A stretch of DNA of 62,600 nt, filler included, from 9 parts of 9 records of this genome joined end to end with filler, not necessarily neighbours in it; one strand, 5' to 3'; numbered from the whole stretch's first letter, positions 1 through 40,739 are shown. The notes: generated by a model from the letters alone, not told the origin. Numbers and translations are program-made.

Positions 1-1120
1 GGTGGCCCCGGCTGCACACCTTCTCGATCGGACTCAAGGGCAGCCCTGACCTGGCCAACGCTCGGCTGGTGGGCAGCAGCGCGGGCGGGCGTGAGCCGGG
101 ACAGGTGGCCGATTTCCTGGGCACGGCGCACCACGAGTATAATTTCACGATCGAGGAAGGGCTGGACGCGATCCCGGATGTGATCCAGATGGTGGAGACC
201 TATGATATCACCACCGTGCGTGCGTCCACTCCGATGTTTCTCATGTCTCGCAAGATCAAAGCCATGGGAGTCAAGATGGTCAGCCCGCACCGCCGTTGCT
301 GCATGACCGTTCCCGGCAGGTGCTGTCGGGCGAGGGCGCCGACGAGATCTTTGGCGGATACCTGTACTTCCACAAGGCGCCGAGTAAAGAAGAATTCCAC
401 GTGGAGACGTGCCACAAGGCGGGCAGCTCAGCTAGCGCTGCGTGACTGTGCGCAGGTGAAGGCTCTCCACATGTTTGACTGCAACCGCGCCAACAAGTCC
501 ACTTCGGCCTGGGGGGTGGAGGCGCGCGTGCCATTCCTGGATAAGGAGTTTGTGGCCTACTCCATGCAGATCGACCCAGAAGAGAAGGTCCTGATTGTCC
601 GCTCAACTGGCACTGACCGGCTGTGCATAGATGTGCAAGAACGGCCGGATCGAGAAGTGGATGCTCCGGAAGGCGTTTGACACCCCGGAGAATCCGTACC
701 TGCCTGAACAAGTCCTGTGGCGCCAGAAGGAGCAGTTCTCCGACGGGGTTGGCTACAGCTGGATCGACACCCTCAAGGAAGTCGCCGAATCGGAGGCGCT
801 GCCTGCTAACCCTGCAGTGGCTGACTTGTTGGCAGGTGACCGACGCTCAGATGGCCGCAGCCGCCAAGCGGTTCCCGGTCAACACCCCGGGCACAAAGGA
901 GGGGTACCGCTATCGCGACATTTTCGAGCAGAAGTTTGGTGCGCACAAGTCGGCGATTGATACAGTGCCGGGCGGCCCCACTGTGGCCTGCAGCACGGCC
1001 AAGGCGGTCGAGTGGGACGCTTCCTTCAAGAACATGGCTGATGCCTCCGGGCGGGCGGTGGGTGGAGTGCACAATGATGCCTACGCCCAGCCTGCAGCCA
1101 AGCGTGCCAAGACCGAGTGA
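1..1120 (+). CDS. ASNS: Glutamine-dependent asparagine synthetase, 3' part (5' end outside window); 5 introns at 69-104, 279-319, 419-455 (GC-AG), 588-630, 796-835 (GC-AG)
   Basis: Spliced translation gives [69 protein letters not shown] and [14 protein letters not shown]; stop TGA at 1118-1120. Confidence 0.96.
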
Positions 1121-1462
1121 TCTGCCCCGACATTGCGGTATACCGAAACGTAACCGAAACGAGGAACCTTGGATCGAACATGGTGGTGAAATGCTGTATG
1201 TACTATCACTAGACAGGCACTGCTGTACTTAGTCTTGCCAGCATTGCAACTTACTAGTACTCTACATCAGGGTCCACGCATGTCCACGGAGATCCAATTA
1301 AATTAAGTTAGAGATAAATGACTTGTATTTGATAGCAAAAATTTACGATTGCAATAAGAGAATGCCATCTAAATCTTCATCATTGAGTTGGGATGTACAT
1401 AGCAAGTAAAACTAGACAATGACATTGCACACAAGCTCACAGGCAAAGTACTCACAGGTTAC

Positions 1463-2875
1463 TCACAGGCTTGCAAAGAGCATGGCGTTTAGCAACGGGG
1501 CCTCCAAGCGTGGTACAACCAGGTTTCCACCATTGTAGTACACTTGATCCTCATCCAGCACATCGCCTCCACTGAGAATGACTATCGGCCAAACGGGATC
1601 TCCAGGATGGAAAGTACCTTTCAACTCTAAGCGGCTGAATTTGGTCAGGGAAACCAAGTCAGACGGCGATTGAAACAATGGGTCCACAGAGCACTGTCCT
1701 GTGCTGCATCTAAAGAGCAAGCAGGACCTCGAGCGCACCACCCCATGAAGCCAGTGCCCGTCCAAGGCCATGAGTGCAAACTGCTCACCTGCGGCCAAAT
1801 TGGCAGAATAACTCAGGCTGCAGCTGAAACCCTCCAGAGTCGTCGCATTCAGCACACCGTTGGTCAGATTCTGAGGAAGTCTCACGAGAGCTGTTGAATT
1901 CTGAAAACCGTCACTGGTCCCGGCGAGCTGTGTGTGCGGGGGCTGGTATGTCTTGTACTCCCAATCGGGCCGGCGGGGCTGCACATTTGGGGCCGCTCGT
2001 CTAAGGATCGGCACATCAGCTATGATCATTGTTCCTGTTTCTGTAGTGTTATATGGGCCCAAAATTTTCGCCAGGACCCGGCCTTTCGAGTAGATTCCGC
2101 TGCCTGCAGACCCCCACGAGTGTGCTGATTCTGCAGCCAATAGATTGGCCCCAGTCCCCCGGCTCCAGCCTTGCTGGATGCCCAGGCCGGGCAGCATTGG
2201 CGGCGCTGCAGTCACCCAGCCAACGGGGTAGACAAAATCGCTAATCCCCAGCAACGGATCAGCGGCCATCGCAGCTGCCGGCGTGCTGAACACTATGTCA
2301 AAGCAGGTGTGCATACCAAACCGGACCCCAAACTCTGTATCGAAATACACTGGATCTGCGGCCGGAGGGTAGGTGGCGTGTGTGCTCTCGCCTGCGCCCG
2401 GCGCGGGGTCGTATAGATGCATCTTGTGGTACTTGGCTAGCAGGCGACCCCCCGGACCCGCAGCCAGCTGAGTGTTGTAGTGCGCCTGGCCCTGGACGTC
2501 ACACAGGCAGAAGACCACCACCACACTGTACTTGCGAGCCAGGCAGCCCATCATCGAGGACACCGGAGCTGCCCCCGGCTGTACTTGCGAGCCAGGCAGC
2601 CCATCAGCGCTCGAGCAGAGATGCGCCCCTGGCTCCGGCGCCTGCTCGCACGTCGAGCGGTGGGCCAGCGCCGTGTCGGAACCGAGCGCACTCTCGCCAA
2701 ACACAATGATCTGCGCGCCCTGCCCAGCCGCCCTGCGCACGAAAGACTCGACCAGGCCCGCCTGAGTGGTGCTCGCGTTCTCAAACATGCCTTGCACCAC
2801 CGCGGCTCGATAAGTCTGGCCATCTGCGAGAGCCACCGCAGTGCACACAGCCAGCAGTCCCCAGCCGCGCCCCAT
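1463..2875 (-). CDS. Secreted vanin/biotinidase (pantetheinase)-like carbon-nitrogen hydrolase
   Basis: Signal peptide MGRGWGLLAVCTAVALA; nitrilase triad motifs IIVFGE, YHKMHLY, TCFDIVF; FDTEFGVRFG; GSGIY; vanin C-terminal region (FSCSLSY, LKGTF). Confidence 0.88.
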   Translation of the reverse strand: MGRGWGLLAVCTAVALADGQTYRAAVVQGMFENASTTQAGLVESFVRRAAGQGAQIIVFGESALGSDTALAHRSTCEQAPEPGAHLCSSADGLPGSQVQPGAAPVSSMMGCLARKYSVVVVFCLCDVQGQAHYNTQLAAGPGGRLLAKYHKMHLYDPAPGAGESTHATYPPAADPVYFDTEFGVRFGMHTCFDIVFSTPAAAMAADPLLGISDFVYPVGWVTAAPPMLPGLGIQQGWSRGTGANLLAAESAHSWGSAGSGIYSKGRVLAKILGPYNTTETGTMIIADVPILRRAAPNVQPRRPDWEYKTYQPPHTQLAGTSDGFQNSTALVRLPQNLTNGVLNATTLEGFSCSLSYSANLAAGEQFALMALDGHWLHGVVRSRSCLLFRCSTGQCSVDPLFQSPSDLVSLTKFSRLELKGTFHPGDPVWPIVILSGGDVLDEDQVYYNGGNLVVPRLEAPLLNAMLFASL

Positions 2876-2959
2876 CGTCTCGTCGGGCTCGAGATCAACT
2901 GAAAACGGCAACTGATCTGGGCCGGCAGCCCGGCACCAAGTAAGGACTGCGCATCGCAG

Positions 2960-3678
2960 ATGCCGGCCGGGCCGGTGGCGCGGGAGGCCGAGAGCTACGT
3001 GCACGACCGGCGGGCCTGGCGGGTGGGCTGCGGGGCCGCGCTCGGGGCCACGCTGCTCCCCGCGCTCACCCGCCGGCTCTGGGCCCCTGCGACGCTGGCC
3101 CTGAGGGTGCGGCGCGAGCTGATGCTCCCATTCTGGCTGCCGCGTGGGCGGGCCGGTAACGGGGCGCTCGGGGCGGCGGCCGGCTGGCTGGAGGACGACG
3201 CGGCCCGACGAGCGTGGGCCGACACAGCCAGGCTCGGGTACCCGCGCGAGCTGCAGCTGTGGGAGGCCCGGGTGGTCGCCCCGGCCGCGTTGACGCTGGT
3301 CCACCCGCTGCTCGGGCTCCGGTGCCTGCCCCGTGGTCGGTGAGCCTGAGGGCGGCGCAGGGTGCTAAGCGGAGAGCAGAAGGGGAGCGACTGTTGGATG
3401 GCCGGCGCAGAGAACAGACCGTTCAGATTGTGGCCGTTCTTTGCCATCGAGGCCGACGATGGCGATACCGAGGTTCGTCGTGAGCTGAGTGGGGGCTGCT
3501 CTTAGCTGGGGCAGGTGGCCAAGCTGCTGAGGAGAGTCGGAGATGGGTACTACGAGCCTGCAAGCGCTCGGTATCCGCTGGTGGTCAAGGAGGATAAGCT
3601 CGGTATCGACTCGGTATCCGCTGGTAGCATCGGGCCCCACGATCGATCGAGTGGGGCCGGTCTCGATAATACTAGTTG
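2960..3678 (+). CDS. Small hypothetical protein, probably 2 introns
   Basis: ATG 84 bp from the divergent vanin start; frame can be continued across ~40-nt GT-AG introns near 3336-3380 and 3473-3513 to TGA at about 3678; no family recognised. Confidence 0.45.
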
Positions 3679-3842
3679 ACTTAAAAGAATCCATGATAGA
3701 TCTGCCCATAACTACAGAGTCTCCATCTGGGCTCATTGTTCCTAAAAGAGGAAACTGGAAGGCAGTCCGCCCCTTCACAGTGACAGAGCACACGGCACGC
3801 CGGGAGCCTCTGGTTTGTACAAAGCGGCACACGCTCTCAAGC

Positions 3843-10470: not shown

Positions 10471-10497
10471 ATAGAAATAGAAATAGAAATAGAAATA
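10471..10497. repeat. (ATAGAA)n microsatellite at a contig end
   Basis: atagaaatagaaatagaaatagaaata directly before the linker. Confidence 0.9.
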
Positions 10498-10597
10498 NNN
10501 NNNNNNNNNNNNNNNNNNNNNNNNNNNNNNNNNNNNNNNNNTTAATTAATTAANNNNNNNNNNNNNNNNNNNNNNNNNNNNNNNNNNNNNNNNNNNN
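10498..10597. other. Artificial contig linker (same linker at 15467-15566, 23035-23134, 30650-30749, 34434-34533, 43324-43423, 47743-47842, 57153-57252)
   Basis: Identical 100-nt N44-TTAATTAATTAA-N44 spacer that stops all six frames. Confidence 0.99.
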
Positions 10598-13890: not shown

Positions 13891-15375
13891 ATGGCTCTCC
13901 ACCGAGCGTGGTGGCTAGTGGCAGTTTGCCTGTTGGCGGTGTGCGCCACGCTGGCCGCCGAGGAGTGCGAGGATGGGGCGGATTGCGAGGATGGCAAGTC
14001 CGACAAGCACTCGGCCTTCCGGTCGCTCATGCCGCTCAGCGTCTACGACTGGGCCGGTTTCGGATCGATCGGGCTCTTCACCGCCATCGCCGCCGGGGGC
14101 GGGATCGGGGGCGGCGGAGTGCTGGTGCCGTTGCTCATCCTGGTGATGGGGTTTGCGATCAAGAGCGCCATCCCCCTCTCCAATATAACCATCCTGGGCG
14201 GATCCATCTTCCATATCATCAGGAACCTGAACAGGAGGCACCCGGCCGCCGACCGTCCGCTGATCGACTGGAACTTCATCTGCTTGATGCAGCCGATGCT
14301 GATCGCCGGCGCGGTGATCGGCAGCTTCGTCAACAAGGTGGTGGCCGACTGGTTCTTGGCGGTCTTCCTGTTCGTGATTTTGATCCTTACAGCCCGGCGC
14401 ACCTGGAGCAACGGAATGAAGCAGTGGGCAAAAGAGGAACAGGCGGCCAAGCAGGAGAAGGAGCAGGGCCTGCTCTCCCGGCTCGACTCCCCTCCCAGTG
14501 CGGTCCCGCTCGTCGAGCGCGGGGGCGAAGAACTGTCACCAGAGTTGGCCTCCATCCTTGAAGCAGATCGCAGGATGCCAGTAGGCAAGATATTAGTCAT
14601 CAGCATGGTATTCGTTGGCGTGCTCGCGCTCAACGTGCTCAAGGGCGCCCCCGGGGCCTCGGGCGGACATCAGTTCAATTTGCTGCACATTGAGTGTGGT
14701 TCGATGGAGTTTTGGGTCATCTCTCTAGCAGTCATCCCGTGGTGTCTGTTTGGATTCTTCATCACGCGCTTCCTGCTGGTGGCCCAGTACCACGGCAAGG
14801 TGGCCGCCGGGTACGAGTTCCTCGAGGGCGACATCGAGTGGGACGAAGCTCGCACCGCCAAGCTGCCCCTGGTCTGCCTTGGGGCCGGGGTGATGGCGGG
14901 CATGTTTGGGATCGGTGCGGCTGGCCAGCGTGCGTGCGGGCTGACCGGGCTGGCAGGTGGCGGACTGATCAACGGCCCGTTGATGGTTGAACTTGGGGTG
15001 CTCCCTGACGTGGCCTCGGCTACCTCGGCCACAATGATCCTCTTCACCTCGTCCACTGCTACTGTGTGCTATGTATTGTTCAATATTCTCAACTTTGAGT
15101 ACGCCACCGTGCTGTTCCCGCTCGGGTTCGGGGCCACGCTGATTGGGCAGTTTGTGTTCAACAAAGTGATGGACATTTGGCAGCGCAAGTCGCTGGTCGT
15201 ATTTGTGATTGCGTTCATCGTCGGATGCAGTGCTGTGCTGATGGGCATCGAGGGCGGCTTTACGTTCATCGAGTACCTGGAGGGCGAGGGCACCCTTTTC
15301 CACCCAATCTGCCAGCCAGTGGGCCACCCTATCAAGGAGATCACGATCAACCGCATTGATGGCACGCACAACTAA
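13891..15375 (+). CDS. TauE/SafE (TSUP) sulfite exporter family membrane protein; in-frame intron 14915-14956
   Basis: AAGGGIGGGGVLVP, RPLIDWN, AGMFGIGGGLINGP (after splicing) and VASATSATMILFTSS motifs. Confidence 0.92.
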   Translation: MALHRAWWLVAVCLLAVCATLAAEECEDGADCEDGKSDKHSAFRSLMPLSVYDWAGFGSIGLFTAIAAGGGIGGGGVLVPLLILVMGFAIKSAIPLSNITILGGSIFHIIRNLNRRHPAADRPLIDWNFICLMQPMLIAGAVIGSFVNKVVADWFLAVFLFVILILTARRTWSNGMKQWAKEEQAAKQEKEQGLLSRLDSPPSAVPLVERGGEELSPELASILEADRRMPVGKILVISMVFVGVLALNVLKGAPGASGGHQFNLLHIECGSMEFWVISLAVIPWCLFGFFITRFLLVAQYHGKVAAGYEFLEGDIEWDEARTAKLPLVCLGAGVMAGMFGIGAAGQRACGLTGLAGGGLINGPLMVELGVLPDVASATSATMILFTSSTATVCYVLFNILNFEYATVLFPLGFGATLIGQFVFNKVMDIWQRKSLVVFVIAFIVGCSAVLMGIEGGFTFIEYLEGEGTLFHPICQPVGHPIKEITINRIDGTHN

Positions 15376-15566
15376 AATCAAGGTCACTCTTGAGTTCACT
15401 CTTTCTCCTCTGGTACTTGTATGTGTAAAGTATAAAAATTCAATGAATTTGAACAACCAAGTCGCCNNNNNNNNNNNNNNNNNNNNNNNNNNNNNNNNNN
15501 NNNNNNNNNNTTAATTAATTAANNNNNNNNNNNNNNNNNNNNNNNNNNNNNNNNNNNNNNNNNNNN

Positions 15567-17063
15567 AGCCCGAGCCGGAGCCCGAGCCGGAGCCGGCCGC
15601 CGAGCCGGCCGCCGAGTGGGAGTTGCTCAAGGACCAGAGCTCCGGCCACTCGTACTATCACCAGCCAGCCACCGGGCAAGTCAGTTGGACCCTCCCGCCC
15701 GGCGCCACCCTCCGTCCAGCCGCCCCGCCCAGCAAGCCGGCCCCAGCGGTAAGCCGGCCGGTGGCGGTGGCCCTGCCGCGCGTGTTCCTTGTCGTCGAGG
15801 TGAATCGGCGGCGGGTGCGACTTGAGTTCGAACTGTTCAGCCAGCACTGCCCGAGCACCGCTGAGAACTTCCGGTGCCCGCCTGCCCAGCCTGGGCTCAG
15901 CCAAGCGCGCAGCTGCCTTTGCACCGGAGAGCGAGGGCGCGCTAAAAGGTCGAGCAAGCCGTTAATGTACAAGGGGTCGCCTATACACCGGATAGTGCCG
16001 GGTGTGGCGATCGAGGGCGGCGACTTCGAGTGCGGGAATGGCACGGGCGGAGAGAGTATATGGGGCGGGCTGTTCAATGACGAAAGCTTTGCGATACCGC
16101 ACAGCGCGGCGGGGATCCTATCCATGGTCAACACCGGCGAGCTCGCCGGCTGGGCACCGGCTAAACTGACGGCAGGTCCGAACTCTAATGGCAGTCAGTT
16201 TTTAATCACGACAGCGCCAGCTCCACAGCTCGACCAGAAGAGTAAGCTTGATGACCGCCTGACTGAGAGTCCTGCTGCAGACGTGGCGTTCGGGCGGCTT
16301 GTCTCGCCGGTGAACTTACTCCGGGAGATCGAGGCCTTCGGGGGCCCCGGTGCTGTGTGCGGCGATGAGTGATTGACTGTGGCCAGATGGTGCGCCGCGG
16401 GGTCGGATCGTACTGCTCGACACCGGCGAGGTGACAGCCGGCGCACAGCCGGTGGGTCACTACCAGTCGAGCTGCTACGCGCCCAAGTCGGCCGTGGACC
16501 GGCACCAGGCGGAGGCCGAGGCCGTGGGTGAGATTTCTCTGCATGGCGTCTCAGCGCAGGCAGCCCGGCGAGCCAGGATCGCCAGGATGGGCAAGGGCGG
16601 CAAGGGCGCGCGCAGGCGGCGGGCCAAGGGCGGTGCGGACGAGCCGCTCGACCCTATGGACCCGGCATCGTATAGCGACGCACCGCGAGGCGGCTGGAAC
16701 GCCGGGATGCCGCTCCCGGGCCAGGACGAGCCTCTCGAGATGGACAGCCGGCCCCAGAGGGAAAGCAAGCCGGGCCAGCCGTTGCCCAGCCCAGGGGATG
16801 TGCTCCGAATGAACCGGGAGAAGGGGCTCCAACCAGCCCCGGCCGCGGCCCCGGGCCCGATGTCCGGTCCAGCGCCCGGCCCATCGGCGGCCCGCGAGTC
16901 GACGCTCGGGGCGTACGACGAGAAGCTAGCGGGGATGGCGCGGGAGGCGGGGCCGAGCACTCAGAGCTTCCGGGCGGGTGACTGGACGTGCCCCAAGTGC
17001 GGCAATCACAACTTTGCGAGCCGGAGTGACTGCAAGCGGTGCGGCCACCCAAAGGGAGGATGA
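15567..17063 (+). CDS. WW domain + cyclophilin + PQBP1-type C-terminal region + RanBP2 zinc finger fusion (5' partial); 4 introns, one GC-AG (16137-16175)
   Basis: WELLKDQSSGHSYYHQPATGQVSWTLP (WW); TAENFRCLCTGE, HRIVPG, GNGTGGESIWG, NSNGSQFLIT (cyclophilin); LDPMDPASYSDAPRGGW and LPSPGDVLRMN (PQBP1); GDWTCPKCGNHNFASRSDCKRC (zf-RanBP). Confidence 0.88.
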
Positions 17064-17807: not shown

Positions 17808-17832
17808 GCTGTGGCCGATTCCGTTACTGCCA

Positions 17833-19172
17833 ATGTCGCGCCGGGCGGAGGGCGGCTTCGACGGCAGTGGTAGCCGGGAGTACCTGGGGCACAAGAAGAA
17901 GGTTCACTCGGTGGCCTGGAACTCGACTGGGCAGCGGCTGGCCTCCGGCAGCGTCGACAAGACCGCCCGGATCTGGGCGCTGGACGACCATCGGAAGGCG
18001 GCCAGTCCGGGCCCGGGCTGGCTGACCGGTCGGGCGGCAGGGCAAGGAGGTGGAGCTCAAGGGGCACAGCGACAGCGTGGATCAGCTCTGCTGGGACCCG
18101 ACGCACCCGGACCAGCTGGCCACTGCCTCGGCCGACAAGACGGTCAGAGTGTGGGACACCAGAGCCGGTGCCTCGCCAGTCCGGGCCGGCGCGCGAGCCC
18201 GAGCCAGGCAAGTGCTCGCACAACATCAGTACCGCCGGGGAGAACATCAACATCGCCTGGTCGCCCGACGGGAAGCAGATCGCGGTGGGGAACAAGGCGC
18301 GGCGGCTGGTCTGGGCTCGGAGCCAGCGGGGGCGGGGCAGAACGACGTGCTCACCGTAATCGAAACTAGGAAGATGAAGAAGGCACGAGAGGAGAAGACC
18401 TTCGCGTACGAGGTGCGACTGGGGTCTGGCGGCGTTTGAGCTTTGTTCAGGTCAACGAGTTCTGCTGGGACCCGACAGGCCAGTTCTTCTGCCTGGCACA
18501 GGGAGAGAAGAGCGCCGGATGGATAGAGGCGGCCGCGCACGACGAGCGGGGCTGATCGGGTGGGTGCAGGTGCTCAATGCGTCGGACTTTAGTCCATACA
18601 GGAAGCAGCTAGCCCACACAGCCAGCTGCTACTGTATTGAGTTTGCACCAGATGGCCGGTACAGCCTGCATACATGTAATCCAGCCAGCCGATGGCCGGG
18701 CCAGGTATCTTAGCCTCGGGGGCGCCGACGCGATCGTCAGCCTTTGGGATGTCTCGGAGTTGATCGCAGTCCGAGCGTTCGACACGATGCAGCATGCGGT
18801 GCTCTAGTCGAGCAGTCTGGGTGCGACGGTCGCTGTGCCAGGTGCGGGCTCTGAGCTTTAACAAAGACGGCACAATGCTGGCGGCGGCCTCCGAGGACCC
18901 TTATGTGGACATTGTGGATATAGAGAACCGGGGCTACTTTAGAGATGGGCCAGTGCATCGGATAGAGACTGGTTACGCCATGAACACGATCGGTGCGGGG
19001 CCCCCTAAGGGCAATGTCAAACCTCGGCAGCGTTCCACCCCAAGGAGAACCTACTAGCATACGCGGGCGACGACAAGGACAAGGACGACTACGACATGGG
19101 TAGCCTAGCCTAGCGCATGACAGGTTGATGGGGCGGGCAGGCTCTGTCAAGATCTACGGTTTCCCGAGATGA
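17833..19172 (+). CDS. THOC3: THO complex subunit 3 (TEX1) WD40 protein; 9 introns of 38-46 nt, 3 of them GC-AG (17998-18040, 18297-18340, 18529-18569)
   Basis: Spliced translation REYLGHKKKVHSVAWN..LASGSVDKTARIW, ELKGHSDSVDQLCWDP, GENINIAWSPDG, YEVNEFCWD, AHTASCYCIEF, LAYAGDDKD. Confidence 0.92.
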
Positions 19173-23034: not shown

Positions 23035-23134
23035 NNNNNNNNNNNNNNNNNNNNNNNNNNNNNNNNNNNNNNNNNNNNTTAATTAATTAANNNNNNNNNN
23101 NNNNNNNNNNNNNNNNNNNNNNNNNNNNNNNNNN

Positions 23135-24536
23135 CTGCCGCAGCGGAGGCCGAAGCTGCCGCAGAAGAGGCCGAGGGAGGCGCGCCCGAGGATGAGCCCG
23201 AGGCGGCGCGTGCACAGGTCCAGATGATAGAGCTGCTGCTTAGCCACAGGGCCGACCCAGACCAGGCCAGCCTGCTGGGGCACACCCCGCTCTGGCAGGC
23301 CGCGGCAGTCGGATGCGAGCAGGCTGTGCGCTCGCTGCTCAAGGGGGGCGCACACCCTTTGAAGACCGAGGTGGACCTGTGTCAGCGCAAGCTGGGCAGC
23401 TCGCCAGCTGAAGCTGCTGCGCGGGCAGGCCAGCGCGGGCTGGCGCTGGTGCGCACCCTGGCTGGCGTGAGACTGACGGGTGGCAGATGCTGCTACGAGC
23501 GGAGAAACAGCCGCCTGTAGCTGTGCTGCCCGAGCTGGAGAAGCAGCTGGCTGAGCTCGAGGCTGAGCTAGAGGCTGCGGATGCGGATCTCGAGGTCTTG
23601 CCGCAGAGGGCGATAGAGGAGCGGGAGCGGCTGAGCGAGCAGATCGAGCAGATTAAGCAGCGGCAAAGCCAGCTCAGGCTGCCGAGGGGCGATTGGCGGC
23701 TGGGCGCCCCAACTGAGCTAGGGCAGAACCAAAAGGACCGGATTCGGGCAAAATTTGGAGAGCGGATGCAGGCGATCGCAGCGGCCGACAAGAGGGCCAA
23801 GTGGTACACCCCAGACGGCTACGACCTCGAATTCCAGAATAAGGGCGAGCTCAGAGTGAGTAAGCGGCTTTCAGAAGAGGCGGACATGCCTGCCAAGCGC
23901 CAATCAGATGCTGGGTACGAAGACGTGCTGGGCCAGCTGGATTGTATTGGCCAGCGGCTTGTGTGCACTATGGCCCAGATGGCAGCGGGTCTTCCAGGGT
24001 ACCCTGGGCAGCAGCGAGCGTTTGCTGCGTGTAGCCGGCATTTGTGCCGCAGGCGGGTTGAACGGTCTCAGATCCTAGAAGACCTGAAGCAGCTTGAAGC
24101 CAACGAATTCGTGGTCAGCCTAGCCGCCGAGGACACACTGCCTGACTGCGACAACTTCAACTTTAGCCTGAGCCGACAAGCCACGCCCGAGGTCGAACTG
24201 TCCCTGTCCGTACGGATAGGCGAGCACAGTGCATCCAATCCGAGCTATCCGCACCTGCCGCCGACGGTCACCCGGGTGTGCGGGCAGCGGACGTCGCTGT
24301 ACCTCGAGTGGCTCAAGGGCGCCGAGGCCTTCCCCGGCGAGAATGAATACCTCGTTGGTAGGCTCAAAAGAAGTAAATGGGCAGATCGTGATCGAGAGCG
24401 GGACCTCGGCGATTATCTAAAGATATGGTTCGGCACATGGGTATCTAAAGGCTTGAGAGACACGGTTGTGCTGAAAAATGTAGAACTGATGGCACGCTAT
24501 CAGGCCGAACTAGCGAGTGAGCTGACAAGCGAGTGA
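23135..24536 (+). CDS. Ankyrin-repeat plus coiled-coil protein (5' partial); intron near 23449-23487
   Basis: LLLSHRADPD..GHTPLWQAAAVGCEQAVRSLLKGGA ankyrin consensus, then heptad-rich helix. Confidence 0.75.
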
Positions 24537-28146: not shown

Positions 28147-30649
28147 CTACACATATAGGTACAACATGTTGTCTCGACAAGGAATAAGTAAACCATCTTG
28201 CGTCACCACAGGAGAGCCAAACAATTGGCCTCCAAGGCGCCAGTGAGAGATGATCTCCCCAGACAAAGCTTTGAGCACAAAAACACCACCAGTAACAGTA
28301 ACACACACCACACAGAGGAGAGATTGTCCGCAAACGAAGGTGAATGGCGCGGCAAAGATTGAACCACTGTTCAGTTCAGCTGCCCATACAATGCAACCCG
28401 AGCAGCAATCGATGCAGCGCAAAGTTCCATCATGGCTTCCTATCCAGCACTGGGTAGAGCCAGCATGGTTGCCTGGAAGTGCACAGGCAGATGAAAATAC
28501 TGGCTCTGCGGTAGCCACTCGCCAGAGCTCCGACCCCGAGTCTAGACCCAATCCATAAACCTCCCCAGACACACAACCCACAACGATGGCTGGTCCTACC
28601 AAGCACGGCGTCGAGAAGACTGGAGCGGCCAACTGACATGACCATTGAACCGCCGGCTGGCTGGCAGCCGCCAACTTAAGGGCAACCACAAGCCCCTTGG
28701 TGCTCGCAGCACACCATCCCCATCCCAACTGCAGCGGCGAGCCAAAGATTGCGCTGCCCAAATCAACGGACCACAGTGCATGACCTTCTAGCTGAGAGAC
28801 CGCTCGCAGATGGCCATCATGCGAGCCGAACACCACCAGCTGGCCCATCAGGTCAGAGGCAGGAGTGCACTTGACCTCGGCACCAGTGCCCACCCGCCAG
28901 CGGACCTCGCCAGTGCTTAGCTCAAGGCAGTACAGGTTGTGGTCATAGCAGCCCACAAAAACTGCCATACCATCGGTACTCACTGCTGCGGAGCTCTCTA
29001 CACGACCCGCCAGTTGCGTCAGCCACACCTGTTTCCCAGTGTCGATGTTGATCTTACAGACTAGCCCGGCGTGAGAGCCAATGACCACATGGCTCGATCC
29101 AGAGCCTCCAATTACGAGGGGAGATGCATCGATGCATTTGACTAAGTCCGAGCCCCACCGCATCTCGTTGGGGCACTTCTTCATAGTGAGTACACTTTGG
29201 TCGATCTCGGGGCTGACCAAACCAGCCTTGGTCACACTCCAACGACTGGGATCCCACGCAACCTCGACGCGCTGCCGCTTGTGCATGGGTGCTACCGACG
29301 AGTCTGACGAATCAGCTTTCACCAGTAGGGCTGTATTCGCATTGGCAGCGGAGCGCGTCTGCAGCAAGCGCACAACATCCTCTGGCGAATTTGCCAAGTC
29401 CTCGATACTAAGCCAAACACCTGTGAGGCAAGCTAATCTATGGAGCAGCTGAACTCCCCTGATGGAGTCACCGCCGGCCTCAAAGAAGCTGCCCCCTGCC
29501 CAACTGGGCCCGAGCATGCCTTTGTACTCATCCAACACCACCGCCCCAATATCATGCAGCTCGCGCTGCTCTCCCAAACCCTCACGCTGACCATCGAACT
29601 GAGGCAACCGACTCCGATCCAACTTCCCTGTCGTCCCGAGAGGCCATGCACTGAGCGCAAGCACTCGTGACGGCACCATGTACAGGGGCAACCGCTCTCG
29701 GCATGCAGCTCTGACCACTGCAGGGTGCACCTCCTCGGGCAGCACATAAGCTATCAGTGTATTCATCTCACTCAGCCTAACCAGGCTATCTCGCACCCCA
29801 GCCACAGACCCTACCGCTGCCTCTACCTCTCCAGGCTCAATGCGCTGTCCGTTTAACTTAATTTGGAAATCCAAGCGTCCCTGAAACTCGAGATGTCCAC
29901 TCTCGAGCCAGCTCGCCCGATCCCCAGTGCAATACACTCGACCCTGACAGGACCAACAAAACCCGCCCTCCCTTCGCCCGGGCAGAGCGTCATCGATCAG
30001 CCTTGCGGCAAGCTGCGGACCTCCGACAAGCAGCAAGCCAGGCGCGCCGGGCGGGGCTGGTTGGCGCTGGGCGTTCAACACGAGGCAGGTCACATTGGGC
30101 AGTGGTCTGCCTATTGGCACCGTGCCCGCACTGCGCTCCCGAGCGGAGACTCGCATGGCGGTGACCTCGCCAGCGGTCTCGGTCTGGCCATATATATTCC
30201 ACAATTTGAGGCCCGACCCTGTCCTGGAGACTAGGCTGGCGCTAAGTGGCTCTCCGCTCGCCCCCACGCTGGTGAGACTTTCTGGCCAGTCGCGCCAAAC
30301 CTCCAGCAGCATCCCGAGCACCGATGGCGCAAACCAGGCCAGAGTGGCCCCACTATCCGAGCAGTAGCAGCGCAGCCGGTTGGGTGCCAGCAGACTGCCC
30401 TGAGGCGGCAGACAGAGCGCCAAGCCACAGAGCAACCCACACCAGACGGCCACCACTCCGTCCACAAAGCCGGACGCCGAGGCGCACAGCACCCGGTCAG
30501 CGGTCGACAACGACAGTGCAGCCCCCGTGCCGAGCGCGCACACGGCCAGCCCGTGGTGGCTGTGCAGCACCGCCCTGGGCGCACCGGACGAGCCCGAGGT
30601 GAACAGCACACAGCCGGCCGAGACACTGACCACCGGCTGCCTGTCCCCA
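28147..30649 (-). CDS. AASDH: AASDH/ACSF4-like mono-modular NRPS-like enzyme (adenylation + carrier protein + PQQ-like beta-propeller), 5' partial
   Basis: FTSGSSGAP, NIYGQTE, YCTGD, GRLDFQIKLNGQRIE, GKLDR (A domain); FFEAGGDSI (phosphopantetheine Ser); DLVKCIDASPL, GSH, GRVESS, GCYD (AASDH propeller). Confidence 0.88.
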
Positions 30650-30749
30650 NNNNNNNNNNNNNNNNNNNNNNNNNNNNNNNNNNNNNNNNNNNNTTAATTA
30701 ATTAANNNNNNNNNNNNNNNNNNNNNNNNNNNNNNNNNNNNNNNNNNNN

Positions 30750-31034
30750 CTGCTGGTGTGCTGCAGCCAGCTGCTGCTTATATTGTTCGACCCGCTTCTC
30801 GGCCTGCTGGTGCGCTTCGGGCGGGGCTACCACCTCATCGGCCGCCCCCTCAGAGTTTGGTGGACGGGTCCAGAGCAACGGGCTGGCGGCTGGGAGACCG
30901 ATCGGGTCCAGGGCGAGGGCGGACAGCGCAAGGCCTATCGATAGACCCACTGCCAGCCCGATGAGGCAGGCCACCACGTACCCATATCTCCGGAGCACCG
31001 GCCAACGTCGGTCCCGTGGGTTCAGCCCCGCCAT
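30750..31034 (-). CDS. Type II membrane protein N-terminus (3' cut by contig edge)
   Basis: MAGLNPRDRRW then TM segment VVACLIGLAVGLSIGLAL; divergent from the next gene. Confidence 0.55.
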
Positions 31035-31132
31035 GACCGTCCTAGCGCCCACACCGGGGTGTCCATAGATCGCAATCGTCGGTGCCACCGGCGACTTTCG
31101 CGCACGTCTCTGGAACCACAATCGCCGCACAC

Positions 31133-32413
31133 ATGGCCCAGCAGTGGCACTCGCCGCACCACAATCTCCGCGCAGCAGTGGCGCAGCTTGCGCTGCTCGC
31201 GACCGTCGTGTCCGGCAAGTGCAACCCCGAGCTGTATGCCCCGGCCAGCTCGCCCCACGCCCAGCTGGCGGCCGGGGCGGCCCAGCTCACGCTGCTCGCC
31301 CAAGATCGGGGCGAGCTCTCACCGGCATGCCTGGACGGTTCGCCGTATGGCTTCTACTTCCAGCCGTCGCTTACCAACTCGAGCAAGTGGACGATCAGCA
31401 TTAACGGCGGCGGCTGGTGCTACGACGAGGTGGACTGCTACTGCCGGAGTAAGACGTCGCTGGGGACCAGCACGGTGCTGCCCAAGACCGGCGGCTGCAG
31501 CTGCATGAATCCGTTACCTGACGGCTCGATGGACAACGACTGCAACTGCCTGCACCTGCCGTACTCGGACGGGGCCAGTTTTTCGGGCTATCGGGCCGCC
31601 GCCTGGCCTGTCCCGGCGGTGAAGGACGCTAAGCTCTACTTTAGAGGGATAAAGAATCTCGACGGGGTGCTCGATTTCGCAATGGCGCACGGCATGGGCC
31701 GAGCCTCCGAGCTGGTGGTGACCGGCGGCAGCGCCGGGGGCCTATCCACCTTCCTTCACACCGACCGGGCGGCTGCGCGGGTGCCTCACGCCAAGGTGCG
31801 GGGAGCACCGGTAGTCGGATATTTCTTGGATCATGACAACTTCCGGCACACCACCGGCGGCCAGCCGAACACGCCCGAGTGGTCTACACCTGGGACCGGC
31901 GCCAACTACACCACCTGGATGAAATACGTGTACAAAATGCAGAACATGAGTTTCGGGCCGGACGGTGGACTGAGCAAGGCGTGTCAGGCCAGGCATCCGA
32001 CCGAGCCCGGACTGTGCTTCATGTCGCCGCACATGCAGGACGTTATCCAGACCCCGTTTTTCATGTTCAACTCCAAGTACGACTCGTGGCAGCTCGGAAA
32101 CGAATTCCAATCGAGCTGGCAAACCCAACCCGAGCAGCAAGGCGTGCTTCAATACGGACGAGACTTCCTCGCCCAGCTGAGACCGGTCTACAACGGCGAG
32201 AGCAAGAACGGCGGGATGATCACCAGCTGCATCTGCCACGGCTGCCCGTGGCCGTCGCTGGTGCTCGAGGGCAAGAACTCTTACGAGCACTTTGCGGATT
32301 GGTTCTATGGCAAGACGTCGGGCGCAGCCGCCATGCATATCGACCCACGGCTACCCAACGGCAACGGCACGCTGCAGGGCGGTGCCTTCCGGCAGTGCGC
32401 GGCCTTCCCGTGA
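31133..32413 (+). CDS. Pectin acetylesterase / Notum-family carboxylesterase, secreted
   Basis: ACLDGSPYGFY, NGGGWC, YSDGASFSG, LYFRG, GGSAGG nucleophile motif, NSKYDSWQL, SCICH. Confidence 0.92.
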   Translation: MAQQWHSPHHNLRAAVAQLALLATVVSGKCNPELYAPASSPHAQLAAGAAQLTLLAQDRGELSPACLDGSPYGFYFQPSLTNSSKWTISINGGGWCYDEVDCYCRSKTSLGTSTVLPKTGGCSCMNPLPDGSMDNDCNCLHLPYSDGASFSGYRAAAWPVPAVKDAKLYFRGIKNLDGVLDFAMAHGMGRASELVVTGGSAGGLSTFLHTDRAAARVPHAKVRGAPVVGYFLDHDNFRHTTGGQPNTPEWSTPGTGANYTTWMKYVYKMQNMSFGPDGGLSKACQARHPTEPGLCFMSPHMQDVIQTPFFMFNSKYDSWQLGNEFQSSWQTQPEQQGVLQYGRDFLAQLRPVYNGESKNGGMITSCICHGCPWPSLVLEGKNSYEHFADWFYGKTSGAAAMHIDPRLPNGNGTLQGGAFRQCAAFP

Positions 32414-32751
32414 TTCGGGTTGGCGGTGCGAGAGAGCTGATGGGAGTCGGATTGATTTCTGATTGATTATAGTGAGAGCTTTAGCTGGCGCTTCGACTCG
32501 CCAAGTCCTAGTCGCAAAGCTTGAGTATCGAGAGTGAGTGACTAGCTGGGACTCGAAAATCTGCCGGCTACAATGACATTGTAGCTAGCTCGCAACATGA
32601 GTGAATCTATTAGCCTGACTAGTGATTAGGTCAGCGCGCTTTTGTCACGAGTGCGGCGCGACGCGTATTGAGCTTGACGGGATTTAGAATCTACTTGTAT
32701 CAAAATTTATAGGCTGCTCGGCCCGCGTGTTGTAAGTAAGCTTTAAGCTTA

Positions 32752-34065
32752 CTAGGCGTTTGGGTCTGCGTGGGTTCTGATCTCGTTTACAAGCTCTTGC
32801 ACGGCCTGGTAGGCCCCCATCCCGCCGCCCAGCGTGCCTACCGCCGCTACCACCAACGGCAGCCCCGCCTGCAGCCAGCTCTTGGCATGCAGCTTGATGA
32901 AGAAAGCGGCCGGTAACACAAACACACACGCCACAATGCACAGCGCACCGACCAGCGACATCAGTGTAGAGAAGTACGGCACCGCCGCGCCCGCCCCCAC
33001 CGTCCCCGCCCCGACCAGCACCCGGAGCACCGTCCGCTTCCATAAATATCCGTTGGCGCCGGGCTTGAGCCCCGAGGACCTCTCGAGAGAGCTGTGGAGG
33101 AGTGTCATCAGCACTGGATAAGTCAGAAGAATGTGTAGTGTCACCAGCGACTTGGCACCGATCTGCAACGGCCCGACCCGCGGGAGCGAGCACAGGATGG
33201 GTGAGTACACCTCATCGCCATACACGGCATACCCGACTGTTGCAATCGGAAGGTAAAGAGCGAGGACTACCAGATAGGCCAAGTTGGCCGCGGCGTCGAA
33301 CCGCGGCCGGAGCTGCTTCGGCATTGACTCCTCCACGTGCGGGATCCCGGCATGCGCCGCGAAGGCCAGGCTCATCGCCGCGAATGCCTGTGGGAACCCT
33401 TTGACTAAGAAGAGGCTATGACCGCCTCTGTCTGAGTCAGAGTGGGAAGAGCCGTTGCCGTGCGTGGTGAGACTGACCACGATGCTGGTGACCACCACCA
33501 GCACCACAGCGGTCACCCCGAGCAACGCCACCACCCGCAGCTCTCTGACCGTCCCCAGAGCCAGCACCGGGATGTTGGCCAGCCCGCCCGCCGCCCCAAT
33601 CCAAACACGGGTGCTCCAGCCCAGCGGTCCGTCGAAGATCTCTTCCAGGAACTTGCCAGCGAGCACCAGGAAGAGCGTCGACACCCCGAACAGGCTGGCC
33701 CACTCGAATCCGTTACTGGTCACCCGGCCGGCTGGCCCGAAGGCCGCTTGTGCGATCTCGGCATAAGAGCTGCGCACCCGGAGCCGGTCTTCATCGTAGC
33801 AGCAACGGACGACCAGCTTGAGCGTGTAGTTGGAGGCGAGCGCGCACAGCGCGATCATCCCGAGGCAGGCCCAGCCGGCCTGCCGGAGCATGAACGGAAG
33901 CTGAAGTATCCCCAGCCCGGCCATTTGGCAAACCAAATTGGCCGCCACGCCGACCAGCCCAGCCCAGCCGGCAGGCGGCTGTTCCGGGGCCTCGGAGTAC
34001 TGGACGCCCTGCTCGCAGTCGCTGGCCTTCAGCAGCGAGGCCTCCATCGGCTCGGTGGTTGCCAT
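32752..34065 (-). CDS. Amino acid transporter, Aa_trans (AAAP; AVT1/VIAAT-like)
   Basis: GLGILQLPF..AGW, SYAEIA..AFG, AFAAHA, GYAVYG, PYFSTLMSLVGA; about 11 TM helices. Confidence 0.92.
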   Translation of the reverse strand: MATTEPMEASLLKASDCEQGVQYSEAPEQPPAGWAGLVGVAANLVCQMAGLGILQLPFMLRQAGWACLGMIALCALASNYTLKLVVRCCYDEDRLRVRSSYAEIAQAAFGPAGRVTSNGFEWASLFGVSTLFLVLAGKFLEEIFDGPLGWSTRVWIGAAGGLANIPVLALGTVRELRVVALLGVTAVVLVVVTSIVVSLTTHGNGSSHSDSDRGGHSLFLVKGFPQAFAAMSLAFAAHAGIPHVEESMPKQLRPRFDAAANLAYLVVLALYLPIATVGYAVYGDEVYSPILCSLPRVGPLQIGAKSLVTLHILLTYPVLMTLLHSSLERSSGLKPGANGYLWKRTVLRVLVGAGTVGAGAAVPYFSTLMSLVGALCIVACVFVLPAAFFIKLHAKSWLQAGLPLVVAAVGTLGGGMGAYQAVQELVNEIRTHADPNA

Positions 34066-34533
34066 GCGTGACCGGGCGCGGGCTTCTTTGTTAAGTGCGG
34101 GGCGGGCGTTTTATTACCGGGAAGGCCCTATTCAAGTACAAGTACTGTACAGTCGTCGTACTGTAGTCGTCGTCGTACTGTCAGAGCCGGAGCAGTCTTT
34201 TTTATCATGTGAGTACATGTGAGTTCTTAAATGCTCTAGCCAACTCTAGCCAGTGCAATTCGAACCGAGTCTGAGATCCACCGTCGAGATCAAAAATCGT
34301 CATCAATAATATAGATATAATTAATCACAACTGGTACCTACCAACTACCTATCAACATAATTACCTAGGTGGTACTGCGTCAATATAGGAGTTCTGTTGG
34401 CGCGCATGCTCGAGGATACTCGAGGATGACCTTNNNNNNNNNNNNNNNNNNNNNNNNNNNNNNNNNNNNNNNNNNNNTTAATTAATTAANNNNNNNNNNN
34501 NNNNNNNNNNNNNNNNNNNNNNNNNNNNNNNNN

Positions 34534-34867
34534 CGCCCTGAACAGAGCTCACGGCCGCCCCGATCTCGCCCAGCCCCCGCGTCAGATTCATCTGCTCGTA
34601 GAGCACAAACCAGCGACCGGTCTGGCCGCCCCGGCCAGCCACTAAGAATGGGTCGGCCCCAGGGAACGCCGGCGTCGGATCAGGCTGCAGCTCGAGCGGC
34701 GAAGCACCGCGGGCCACTCCAATCGTCCAGGATGGTCCTTTGCCACCAACCGCGCCTTCGCAGGCACGGAGGAGTAGGTACAGCCCCGCCAGCCCCGCCA
34801 GCACGGCGAGCAGCAGCTGTGGCCGGTGCTGTGGCCGTGGGGACCACCAGCACCCCTGCCGCACCAT
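34534..34867 (-). CDS. GINT1-like (GT64-associated) N-terminal beta-propeller, type II membrane protein (3' partial)
   Basis: TM anchor then SWTIGVARGASPLEL, ADPFLV, VLYE, GEIGAAVS, resembling the plant GINT1 N-domain. Confidence 0.6.
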
Positions 34868-34990
34868 CCGGTGGCCACTGCTGACCACTGCAGGGGATCC
34901 AGCACTGCGTTCAGTGCATCCCCTGCAAGTCCAACCAGTGAACCTCCCAGAAATCAAAATTGATATGAAATGGTGAGTAGATAGGAGGCA

Positions 34991-37900: not shown

Positions 37901-38854
37901 GAGCTGGACTCAATGTCACTTGTGCAGAGAGAGCTCAAGCAGCAGGTAGACCAAGTTTATAGCAAGTTGGAAGTGCAGACTCTGGCTTCCGGAAGCTTGT
38001 GTGAGCGGGGCTTGGAAAATCGCTGTGATGTGCTCGAGGAGAAATTGTCGCAGTTCACACAGATGGAGACAATGCATCGTAATGCTATAGACCTCACTGT
38101 CTCAGATATGCGACAGGCGCTCGATGTGGCCTCACTGCAATTGGAACAGGAGGCTGCCGCTAGGAAGAATTTGGCGGAGAGAGTTGGCCAGACAGAAGCT
38201 CACGCCCAATCAGTCCAAGAAGTGCAGCTATCGCAGGCAGAGATTGTTTCGATGGCTGGGCAGCGGTCAGAGCAGCTTGCGTCAATGCTTCAACGGGTGG
38301 AGAGCACACTCCATCAATGCTACACCAGACCTCAGGTGGATGGACTCATCGAAGATATTTCAGCCGCACTTCGAGGACTCGAGGGCAGGCTGATCGAGGA
38401 ATCCAGAGCCCGGTCCTCGTGTGAGATGGAGATTGAAGGCCTTCGATCGCAACTGAATCCAGTACAGCAACTTGGTCCAGAGCAGAGTGTAGAGCTGAGG
38501 GCTCTCGAAAGGCGGCTTGACGAAGAGCTAGGTGAGTTGCGAGAGGACTTTGGAGGGTATAAACACCTCTTGCGATCTGCCATGGATAGTATTGACAGCA
38601 TCAAGCGCTTGCGAGAAGCTTCATTCCCTGATCAGGCAAGTAGTGTGACCAGAGCCGCAGCGAGTGAGCAGTGGCGGCAACTACACAGGGCGCAGGAGGT
38701 TGGGCAGGATGCAGGGGGGAGAGAATCACCAGCTAAAGCTGCATTAAAAGGAGCAGGTTACACGGCGTTAGCAAGTCTCCCGACATTGAGCCCAGAAGCG
38801 TTGACCGCACAAAATAGAATGCGAACTGCCCGGGAAATGATCCTCAACCAATGA
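34991..38854 (+). CDS. Large coiled-coil protein; introns near the 5' end
   Basis: More than 1000 aa of Q/E/L heptad-rich sequence; ATG 34991 joined via short GT-AG introns. Confidence 0.75.
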
Positions 38855-39062
38855 TTTGAATATTAGAATAAAGCTAAAGTTCAATAGTTGTACTCGTACA
38901 ATCATGTACCACACTACCAACACACTGACTTAGTCCTGAAGATTGTCCATTGTATTCATTAATTTCCGAGCATCAAAATAAATTTAGTTTTTGGTCTAGA
39001 TTACATGTAGGTCTAGATGAATAAATATTACGTACATGTAAATAAAATTGATATTGCTTGAA

Positions 39063-40739
39063 CTATTGCTCACTCTGAGCACCTTCAGGCGCCGCCTCAG
39101 CACTTTCTTCACAATCTTGAGCTTTTCGCTCTTTGGCCTTCTTCTTAGCCAGCTCGGTCAAAGCTGTGTCTAATCTGGAGAGAAATTCGACAACATCTTC
39201 TTGTGTCATCCCAATTGCTGCTGCCGCATTCATGTACGGTGTTGGGTATAGATCACAGTGAGCTCCAAACCCTTCAAATGCCAGTGGCCCCACCTTCTTG
39301 CTCTCAACTCCAGACACCACCCGCGCACCGGAACAGTTACGTGCAAAGAGCATTGCGCCCAAGAATGTAATACCTTGACGCTCCTCTGCATTCGCACAGA
39401 ACCCTCCTAGCGTCATGGCAAACGAGATCGGGTTGTGCCGTGTGTCCAGCACCCGCTCGCCATGGCGCTCCGCAAGCTGCTCTAACCCGGCCTGCAGCTG
39501 CTTGAACACTGTCTTACGCTGCTGCAGTAGCTGCGTGAACCCATCAGCACCCATGGACAACAGTGTCACAAATAGATCGAGCACCGGCGCCATCGACGCC
39601 CGCCCGGGGTATGCTGCTGAGATTTGATCAAGCAGCTCCTTTGAGCCTGAAGGCGCCGCAAGAATTGCACCGCCCACAGGCACCATGAAGTTTTTATCCG
39701 TACTTTGCACGATCTGCCACACCGGGTGAGCAAGGGCCCGAAAAATGGGCAGCACCACATCCACTCGGCCCTTTCGAATGGCGTTGCCGATTAGCTGGGT
39801 GGTGCTGGCTGCCTGCACGCCGTAAGCATTGTTGATCAGGTGCCCGATTTGATGCTTGGCGCACAGCTCGGCGATCTCGACCAGCCGATCAGGCGCCCGC
39901 GGGGCAAAGCAGCTCGCGGTCGAGACCACAGCCAGCACCTTCTCTGCGCCTAGCTCTTGGATCTGCCCAGACTGTAAGACATGCGCCCCATCGGCGCACC
40001 TGGGCCTCTAGCGCCTCCAGGTCTGTCCGGAGCTCGTCGCCCTCCAGCTTGTTCGCCATGGGCACTGGCGTTAGCCCAGTGCTCAGTATAGCCTTCAGGC
40101 AGGTCTTCTGATCGATCCGCGGCCAGAGAACGTACCTGCCCAACGGCTCGCCGGGCAGAGGCCGCCAGTGCTACTGGGCCGGCTGATTGCGCTGGTGCAT
40201 CGCCAGCAGCGACATTGTGATCGTCATCCCGGTGGCGAGCGGCAGCACGTGGCAGCGCAGCTTGCCCATCCCTGCCAGCTTGAGCGCATGCGCCACCATG
40301 TAGTTGGTCAGCTGAACGATCAGCGACGAGCCGGCCGCCTTGGGTTGGACTGCCATCACGTCTCCCGACCGCCCGATCCCGTGCGCGAGGTAGAAATTGC
40401 GCTGGGCAACCAGCCGAGAGTACACCCGGCCCTCCCGCTCCCCGGCGCCCACGTTGCCTGCGCCCGGATCAAGCTGGGGACGCGCCGCGGCTAGGACCTT
40501 TGAAGTTGTTGCTGTCCATCATGGACAGCTGGTGCAGCGCCAGCTCGATTGACCGGTCGTCCCAGCCGTGCGGAGGCAGGCAGCGCTGGGTGAGCAGGCT
40601 CTGCAGCAGCTTCTCTTGCATCCGGAGCGACCCAGCCCCCTGCTGGGCGTACGTATCCCCGATCAGTGCGGCGGCCAGCTGTGCCCACCGGTCAGCCTGC
40701 ACTCGCCGGGCAGGCTGCCTTGACGTTGTCTGGGTTCAT
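39063..40739 (-). CDS. SEPSECS: O-phosphoseryl-tRNA(Sec) selenium transferase; 5 introns, the first GC-AG (40679-40718)
   Basis: MDSNNF, GAGEREGRV, HGIGRSGD, QPKAAGSS, PLATGM, WPRIDQK, STASCFAPR, NNAYG, QSTDKNFMVPVGG, YPGRAS. Confidence 0.97.

Follow-up and report, generated by a model that had tools for sequence, protein, structure and literature searches.

We analysed splicing in a 62.6-kb stretch of DNA of G+C content 0.601 (the window, meaning the whole stretch analysed), and all counts given here refer to the window and not to the genome. Its conserved genes are interrupted by very short introns, several of which begin with GC in place of GT. On our reading these are U2-type spliceosomal introns of the ordinary kind in a GC-rich protist genome, about 40 nucleotides (nt) long and with 20–30 % GC donors, and we would give this reading a probability of roughly 80 %. 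Exon tiling in the asparagine synthetase gene (ASNS), exact alignment gaps in a cyclophilin gene, scoring of alternative junctions in the genes for O-phosphoseryl-tRNA(Sec) selenium transferase (SEPSECS) and an archaemetzincin-like peptidase (Peptidase_M54; M54), and mapping of THO complex subunit 3 (THOC3) together indicate that removal of the introns would be needed to make conserved proteins. A preliminary description of the window had placed 23 such introns in four genes: ASNS (five), a cyclophilin-PQBP1 fusion (four), THOC3 (nine) and SEPSECS (five). Independent rebuilding of these genes returned the same set, with the lengths (36–46 nt) and donors (16 GT, 7 GC) as described, and the coordinates, lengths and terminal dinucleotides given for the seven GC-AG introns and for two more named elsewhere proved correct. 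With junctions in all four genes backed by protein homology, the micro-introns appear to be real. We added eight homology-anchored introns to the 23, giving a set of 31 (Table 1).

Introns anchored by protein homology

In ASNS, six exons searched separately matched the NCBIfam profile NF006949 (asparagine synthase B) at positions 265–285, 287–344, 345–376, 379–421, 422–471 and 473–554. Once unaligned end residues were included, the exons tiled the profile as 265–286, 287–344, 345–377, 378–421, 422–472 and 473–554; all five junctions, both GC ones among them, were free of gaps and overlaps. The two GC introns also stood out by signal score, intron 3 scoring 22.7 against 3.9 and 0.0 for the best in-frame GT alternatives, and intron 5 scoring 21.2 against 0.1 for a GT alternative at position 781.

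In the cyclophilin gene, alignment of the read-through frame with solved cyclophilins (PDB 2gw2_A and 2wfi_A) opened two gaps of exactly 13 residues each, equal to the segments 15874–15912 and 16137–16175. A further alignment, of query residues 71–255 with residues 5–149 of 1qnh_A, left 40 extra residues (3 × 13 + 1), which fits three introns of 13 residues; the third (16242–16280) is placed by count and not residue by residue, and a PDB search for it at E<=1e-6 gave no match. The gene as a whole appears to be a splicing-related fusion with a WW-like N-terminus, a PPIG-like cyclophilin domain, a PQBP1-like C-terminal motif and a RanBP2-type zinc finger. The cyclophilin part was identified by search tools, and the WW-like, PQBP1-like and zinc-finger parts are putative, labelled from the translation.

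For SEPSECS, each proposed junction was scored with eight homologues against all frame-keeping GT-AG and GC-AG introns of 20–130 nt lying within 45 nt, and against retention. The proposed intron scored highest at all five junctions, over 9–35 alternatives each. Junctions of the M54 gene were scored against 12 homologues, and three of its five predicted introns came out on top. The M54 intron with a GC donor (46199–46235) scored 6578, within 10 points of a 25-nt variant that also has a GC donor (6588), and the fifth lies in an unconserved tail and was left uncounted. A search with an M54 exon against 1.84 billion representatives found a relative with 72 % identity (P0244), whose 410 residues on a 1283-nt contig leave no room for introns. 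The relatives behind the scoring of alternatives in SEPSECS and M54 were 66–72 % identical.

THOC3 was mapped on the human protein (7znk_C), on which exon 2 corresponds to residues 90–131 and exon 3 to 132/133–161, so that the two exons are contiguous. A motif of exon 1 at residues 59–74 would put its last residue at 89 if the stretch is ungapped, and exon 2 begins at 90. Intron 3 scored 17.0, compared with 3.0 for its best GT alternative (32 nt, adding four residues). Matches to THOC3 exon 2 in a homologue search were dominated by generic WD40 proteins.

The two GC introns that the preliminary description had named outside these four genes fared differently. That of the GPCR-PIPK gene (54110–54150) is supported by the order of its PF01504 blocks and a frame change, with a signal score of 13.8 against 2.5 for the best in-frame GT alternative; that of V-ATPase subunit H (44150–44189) is a model prediction on which homology was uninformative. 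A homologue search with a V-ATPase H exon gave no match at E<=1e-5, and the alignment from a PDB search with its C-terminus ended before another candidate, 45133–45171. Pfam searches with short exons were mostly without a match in V-ATPase H, the M54 N-terminus, a channel gene and a beta-lactamase gene.

Among the seven GC introns of the four original genes, six are obligatory, their length being no multiple of 3 or their sequence containing an in-frame stop, and for none of the seven is there a good in-frame GT-AG pair to take its place. These properties bear on the possibility that the GC donors are artefactual, arising from boundaries set wrongly near a true GT, from base-calling or amplification errors at position +2, or from in-frame segments that are in fact retained. 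For five GC donors predicted by the model, a GT does lie 3 nt away, the assembly is fragmented, and the GC intron 16137–16175, set in the preliminary description, is in frame and free of stops, so that its retention is formally possible. Against this, the nine anchored GC introns either lack an in-frame GT alternative or have one whose signal score is far lower, and GT loses against the homologues in SEPSECS intron 1 (11557 compared with 11602) and in M54 (6223 compared with 6578). Moreover, shifted junctions would be incompatible with the ASNS tiling, retention of 16137–16175 would insert 13 residues into the cyclophilin core, and errors would not single out position +2 of nine introns following AG. 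We consider an artefactual origin highly improbable.

Share of GC donors

GC donors occur in 8 of 27 introns in the five genes that were checked over their length (exact 95 % interval 14–50 %), to which M54 contributes four of its five predicted introns, and in 9 of 31 when single anchored introns are included (95 % interval 14–48 %). The figure from 27 introns is the cleaner one, because the single added introns were not chosen blind. GC donors normally make up about 1 % of donors, and the anchored set is far above that level, as had been claimed.

A window-wide estimate was made with a gene model that combined a three-periodic Markov coding score with an intron score ignoring position +2. 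When one gene at a time was left out of training, it recovered 21 of the 23 known introns and made nine extra calls. At a low intron penalty the model called far too many introns on either strand, most of them with GC donors. A plain count of these calls would overstate the share of GC donors, and they were excluded from the counts. Under a stricter penalty it predicted 83 introns (61 GT and 22 GC) and recovered 22 of the 23. A filter for introns whose removal is obligatory and whose score is at least 10 left 52 (38 GT, 14 GC), and four of the 14 GC calls had a roughly equal GT donor 3 nt away; reassigning these to GT gave 10 of 52, or 19 %. The earlier figure of about 30 % GC donors thus held for the four genes (7 of 23) and for the anchored set, whereas the looser estimate for the whole window was nearer 19 %. 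From the sequence, 20–30 % seems a fair estimate for the window.

Splice signals

All 31 anchored introns end in AG and their borders are always G[TC]..AG, the nine with GC donors having G at +1, C at +2 and AG at the 3' end. In the original 23, the last exonic base (-1) is G in 21 and intron position -3 is C in 22. The donor is weak yet leans to GTGC(G), with GTGC in about half of the GT donors. Information is low over +3 to +8, but G at +3 in 20 of 31 and C at +4 in 17 of 31 make the earlier statement that positions +3 to +6 show almost no consensus too strong. Lengths are as tight as described (mean 39.7 nt, standard deviation 2.4, n=31).

The proposed branch site near the acceptor was borne out: of the 23 introns, 11 contain TGA[CT], a branch motif of the yUnAy type, with its A 8–22 nt ahead of the 3' end, whereas the frequency in 2987 control windows was 9.1 % (p=1.7e-6). 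Several introns lacking it carry GAGCC-type or TTAC-type variants. Beyond the yUnAy core, the motif is often lengthened to GCTGACCG(G/A), as in 14915–14956, 17998–18040, 40679–40718, 44454–44490 and 46453–46489. The 3' end is G-rich and has no pyrimidine tract, positions -15 to -4 being 43 % G, 26 % C, 19 % T and 12 % A, again in agreement with the preliminary description.

Introns with GC donors carry stronger signals elsewhere. Exonic AG precedes six of the seven original GC donors, a context that had been pointed out earlier, and 4 of the 16 GT donors (Fisher p=0.019); the difference persists in the anchored set (7 of 9 GC donors, 6 of 22 GT donors; p=0.017). A score blind to position +2 averaged 19.4 for GC-donor introns and 15.2 for GT-donor introns (p=0.008), and their G+C contents were 75 % and 67 %, respectively. 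At +2 itself T outnumbers C by 22 to 9, although GC dinucleotides outnumber GT in the DNA of the window.

Mechanism of donor recognition

On the reading as ordinary U2-type introns, splice sites would be paired across the intron (intron definition), with a minimal 5' site G/G-Y-G-C, a TGAC-type branch point 8–22 nt from the 3' end, a G-rich spacer replacing the pyrimidine tract and a CAG/G acceptor as cues. GC bias of the genome would let GT-to-GC changes accumulate at +2, and exonic AG together with a stronger branch site and acceptor would keep recognition sufficient wherever +2 is C. No altered machinery would be needed; GC donors accompanied by stronger remaining signals would represent the usual compensation of U2-type GC-AG introns, and this makes a modified spliceosome unnecessary.

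Some observations weigh against this reading. The exact junctions are set by homology and by the logic of reading frames, and the sample is one 62.6-kb window of at least nine joined contigs. The score in the tests of compensation had the 23 original introns themselves as its training set. Outside the four original genes, 5 of 15 predicted GC introns have a roughly equal GT donor 3 nt away. In a scan by signal alone (score of at least 14), new GC candidates numbered 14, compared with about 14 in a Markov-shuffle null and 4 in reversed sequence; by signal alone they do not clearly exceed chance. New GT candidates in the same scan numbered 26, with nulls of about 6 (Markov shuffles) and 7 (reversed sequence). 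A loose regular expression for introns gave no enrichment over shuffles.

The preliminary description had suggested that donors may be chosen by a length ruler plus exonic (U5/U1) contacts, implying a modified spliceosome. Spelled out, U1 would have a changed 5' end or be dispensable, the branch point or 3' site together with the exonic contacts would fix the cut at a distance of about 40 nt, and position +2 would hardly matter. The very narrow lengths (standard deviation 2.4 nt, n=31), the little information at +3 to +8, the G at -1 in 21 of 23 and the preference of GC donors for exonic AG are all as such a system would have them, and Irimia and Roy raised possible changes of small nuclear RNAs (snRNAs) for similar signals in Ostreococcus (PMC2483917). 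The composition at +2 argues the other way: T is more than twice as frequent as C (22 vs 9) despite the surplus of GC dinucleotides, and this preference against the background suggests that +2 is read. GC donors also need stronger other signals, as they do for ordinary spliceosomes, and equal or higher GC-AG shares are found in other GC-rich protists. A remodelled spliceosome therefore seems unlikely, and it is to the same small degree that we would entertain the specific version in which donor choice has partly moved from U1 pairing to measuring about 40 nt plus a -1G/+1G contact, the U1 5' end (standard type ACUUACCUG) being changed or relaxed and both C and T at +2 functional. Were it true, the host would be a natural model for near U1-independent donor selection. 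An Rfam search gave no match, hence no snRNA, within the 62.6 kb.

Least likely of all is that the introns form a special class, whether mobile introner copies, U12-type introns or non-conventional introns defined by structure as in euglenids. Short motifs such as GCTGACCGG do recur near the 3' ends. Pairwise identity among the 31 introns of the window, however, exceeded that of shuffled sequences only slightly (mean 0.615 vs 0.574 in shuffles, maximum 0.784 vs 0.721). U12-type signals were absent, with an [AG]TATCC donor in 0 of 31 and a TCCTTAAC-like branch in 0 of 31. Folding was unremarkable (mean z 0.14, p=0.54), as was the pairing of 1–6 of the 8 end positions.

Relation to introns of other GC-rich protists

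High shares of GC donors have been reported in several GC-rich protists. About 60 % of junctions have GC donors in Emiliania huxleyi (PMC4028052), and shares of 39.6 % in Aureococcus anophagefferens, 22.2 % in Micromonas pusilla CCMP1545 and 7.7 % in a Chlorella were tied to high G+C (PMC3033335), a link with GC content that the Emiliania and pelagophyte papers also draw. Emiliania, Aureococcus and Micromonas resemble the window in their high G+C, in GC donors at tens of percent and in the acceptor AG. When high G+C with at least 10 % GC-AG introns is taken as the mark of such protists, the window falls among them (G+C 0.601; 9 of 31 or 10 of 52). The proteins of the window have no close named relative, which points to a lineage other than these three. 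Pelagophytes, Aureococcus among them, have 14–17 % GC donors according to a later preprint and introns averaging 103–177 bp (bioRxiv 2024.10.30.620910), compared with 36–46 nt in the window.

Ostreococcus lucimarinus, with GTGCGTG donors and GACTGACG branch sites (Irimia and Roy 2008, PMC2483917), shares with the window a donor other than GTAAGT and a CTGAC-type branch motif. Its signals are strict and its introns few, with a median of 111 nt, whereas the window has introns of about 40 nt with weakly conserved signals and frequent GC donors, packed densely into some genes. The BOC1 introns, carried by the outlier chromosome of Mamiellophyceae (PMC3879977), are likewise numerous, very short, weak in signal and crowded in some genes; they are AT-rich, mostly GT-AG with some odd acceptors, and show no discernible branch motif. 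The window differs in its intron G+C of 67–75 %, in having a branch motif and in varying at the donor. Lack of a polypyrimidine tract and a branch motif close to the AG are shared with most fungi and some protists (PMC2483917), but in contrast to such short-intron eukaryotes, the distance from branch to AG is loose (8–22 nt) instead of fixed, and the spacer is G-rich.

Abundant GC-AG introns in GC-rich protists are thus already published, at about 15–60 %, and what the window appears to combine with them is the 40-nt length class; we found no paper on GC-rich introns of 40 nt with abundant GC donors in the literature searched. Through the window, the short list of such protists would gain a lineage that lacks close named relatives, and the host system could serve to test how far donor recognition drifts under GC pressure. 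Added interest would arise only if the snRNAs prove altered, and the main relevance is to genome annotation. If gene finders accept only GT-AG, a large part of the host's intron-containing genes would come out fragmented, a kind of misprediction that the Emiliania paper documents (PMC4028052). As assemblies of uncultured protists are annotated automatically, the use of GC donors matters for protein catalogues. Within the window, the GPCR-PIPK gene has an open frame of 619 residues that continues through two putative introns, each of which would shift the frame; they are predicted as GT-AG at 52301–52340 and 52440–52477 on the plus strand (40 and 38 nt, 78 together). If both are real, the 99-nt stretch between them is read in another frame and is hidden by the long frame.

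Sequence context and further observations

The contigs, at least nine, are linked by eight identical spacers (44 N, TTAATTAATTAA, 44 N), so that genes flanking a spacer need not adjoin in the genome. Pfam and NCBIfam named many genes of eukaryotic type: asparagine synthetase, a vanin-like hydrolase, an HD-domain protein, TauE, cyclophilin, THOC3, a papain-type protease, a beta-lactamase-fold protein, an ACSF4-type enzyme, pectinacetylesterase, an amino-acid transporter, SEPSECS, a fatty-acid hydroxylase, PEX11, V-ATPase subunit H, the archaemetzincin-like peptidase, EamA, a 2OG oxygenase, GPCR-PIPK and cobalamin adenosyltransferase.

Table 1. Proposed introns, the genes that carry them and contig spacers in the window (lengths in nt)
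Feature	Position	Strand	Borders, length	Basis or remark
ASNS gene, 3' part (truncated by window start), 6 exons	3–1120	+		exon tiling on NCBIfam NF006949
ASNS intron 1	69–104	+	GT-AG, 36	profile tiling
ASNS intron 2	279–319	+	GT-AG, 41	profile tiling
ASNS intron 3	419–455	+	GC-AG, 37	after AAG; profile contiguous 377/378
ASNS intron 4	588–630	+	GT-AG, 43	profile tiling
ASNS intron 5	796–835	+	GC-AG, 40	after GAG; profile contiguous 472/473
WW – cyclophilin – PQBP1-like C-terminus – zinc finger gene	15569–17063	+		5' end cut by contig linker; labels as in text
Cyclophilin intron	15874–15912	+	GT-AG, 39	in frame; exact 13-residue gap vs 2gw2_A, 2wfi_A
Cyclophilin intron	16137–16175	+	GC-AG, 39	in frame; after CCG; exact 13-residue gap, conserved core
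Cyclophilin intron	16242–16280	+	GT-AG (GTAAGC), 39	in frame; read from DNA; 1qnh_A residue count
Cyclophilin intron	16350–16386	+	GT-AG, 37	shifts frame; gene rebuilding and gene model
THOC3 gene, 10 exons	17833–19172	+		mapping on human THOC3 (7znk_C)
THOC3 intron 1	17998–18040	+	GC-AG, 43	after AAG; frame change; no usable GT alternative
THOC3 intron 2	18168–18207	+	GT-AG, 40	exon 2/3 contiguity on 7znk_C
THOC3 intron 3	18297–18340	+	GC-AG, 44	after AAG; frame change
THOC3 intron 4	18413–18450	+	GT-AG, 38	gene rebuilding and gene model
THOC3 intron 5	18529–18569	+	GC-AG, 41	after GAG; frame change; 0 in-frame GT-AG alternatives
THOC3 intron 6	18659–18704	+	GT-AG, 46	gene rebuilding and gene model
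THOC3 intron 7	18799–18841	+	GT-AG, 43	gene rebuilding and gene model
THOC3 intron 8	18993–19030	+	GT-AG, 38	gene rebuilding and gene model
THOC3 intron 9	19100–19140	+	GT-AG, 41	gene rebuilding and gene model
SEPSECS gene, 6 exons	39066–40739	-		homology
SEPSECS intron 1	40679–40718	-	GC-AG, 40	after AAG; best of 17
SEPSECS intron 2	40458–40497	-	GT-AG, 40	best of 14
SEPSECS intron 3	40136–40174	-	GT-AG, 39	in-frame stop inside; best of 16
SEPSECS intron 4	39963–39999	-	GT-AG, 37	best of 35
SEPSECS intron 5	39714–39755	-	GT-AG, 42	in frame; best of 9, retention included
M54 (archaemetzincin-like) gene	45434–46777	-		homology
M54 intron	46453–46489	-	GT-AG, 37	best of 11 vs 12 homologues
M54 intron	46199–46235	-	GC-AG, 37	after ACG; gap-free join vs 72 % identical P0244
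M54 intron	45846–45883	-	GT-AG, 38	best of 17
M54 intron	45763–45799	-	GT-AG, 37	best of 21
GPCR-PIPK intron	53394–53432	+	GT-AG, 39	in frame; PF01504 contiguous 80/81
GPCR-PIPK intron	54110–54150	+	GC-AG, 41	after CAG; frame change between exons matching PF01504 229–253 and 266–287
V-ATPase subunit H intron	44454–44490	+	GT-AG, 37	PF03224 contiguous 257/258
EF-hand gene intron	50608–50649	-	GT-AG, 42	in frame; EF-hand split 8/9; downstream exon begins at EF-hand_1 position 9
Candidate V-ATPase H intron	44150–44189	+	GC-AG, 40	model prediction; no usable GT alternative
Candidate V-ATPase H intron	45133–45171	+	GC-AG, 39	in frame; score 21.1, top outside training set
Candidate ankyrin-repeat gene intron	23180–23217	+	GC-AG, 38	model prediction; score 20.2, GT alternative 0.4
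Spacers	10498–10597, 15467–15566, 23035–23134, 30650–30749, 34434–34533, 43324–43423, 47743–47842, 57153–57252

The host appears to be a protist with a GC-rich (60 % G+C) nuclear genome, probably marine, a view based on its SEPSECS relatives. Named SEPSECS relatives were at best 49–51 % identical and came mostly from animals. Four other records, marine transcript-derived ones among them, reached 66–70 %, and one of these is labelled Telonema subtile in EukProt (66 %). One gene would not suffice for a placement, and contamination may be involved. A metagenome scan with a SEPSECS exon returned 80 loci with a top identity of 49 % and no close relative.

Intron density is very uneven, with nine introns in 1.3 kb of THOC3, and several genes of 1.3–2.5 kb forming a single open frame. 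Long intron-free frames with continuous Pfam matches lie, for example, at 28150–30648, 31046–32410 and 32755–34110. At five positions on the plus strand (38671–38707, 43862–43899, 43985–44021, 47992–48036 and 58834–58875) GC and GT donors 3 nt apart both keep the frame and might be alternative donors. A gene resembling voltage-gated channels (56005–57005, minus strand; Ion_trans on one exon) has six predicted GT-AG introns of 37–41 nt and no GC donor, and probably extends past its predicted stop. The plus-strand segment 3531–8990 stays open over 1820 residues and matched nothing in Pfam; in its translation, what look like repeated hydrophobic pairs are followed by a recurring W-R-x-P motif, and the segment possibly encodes a large repeat membrane protein.

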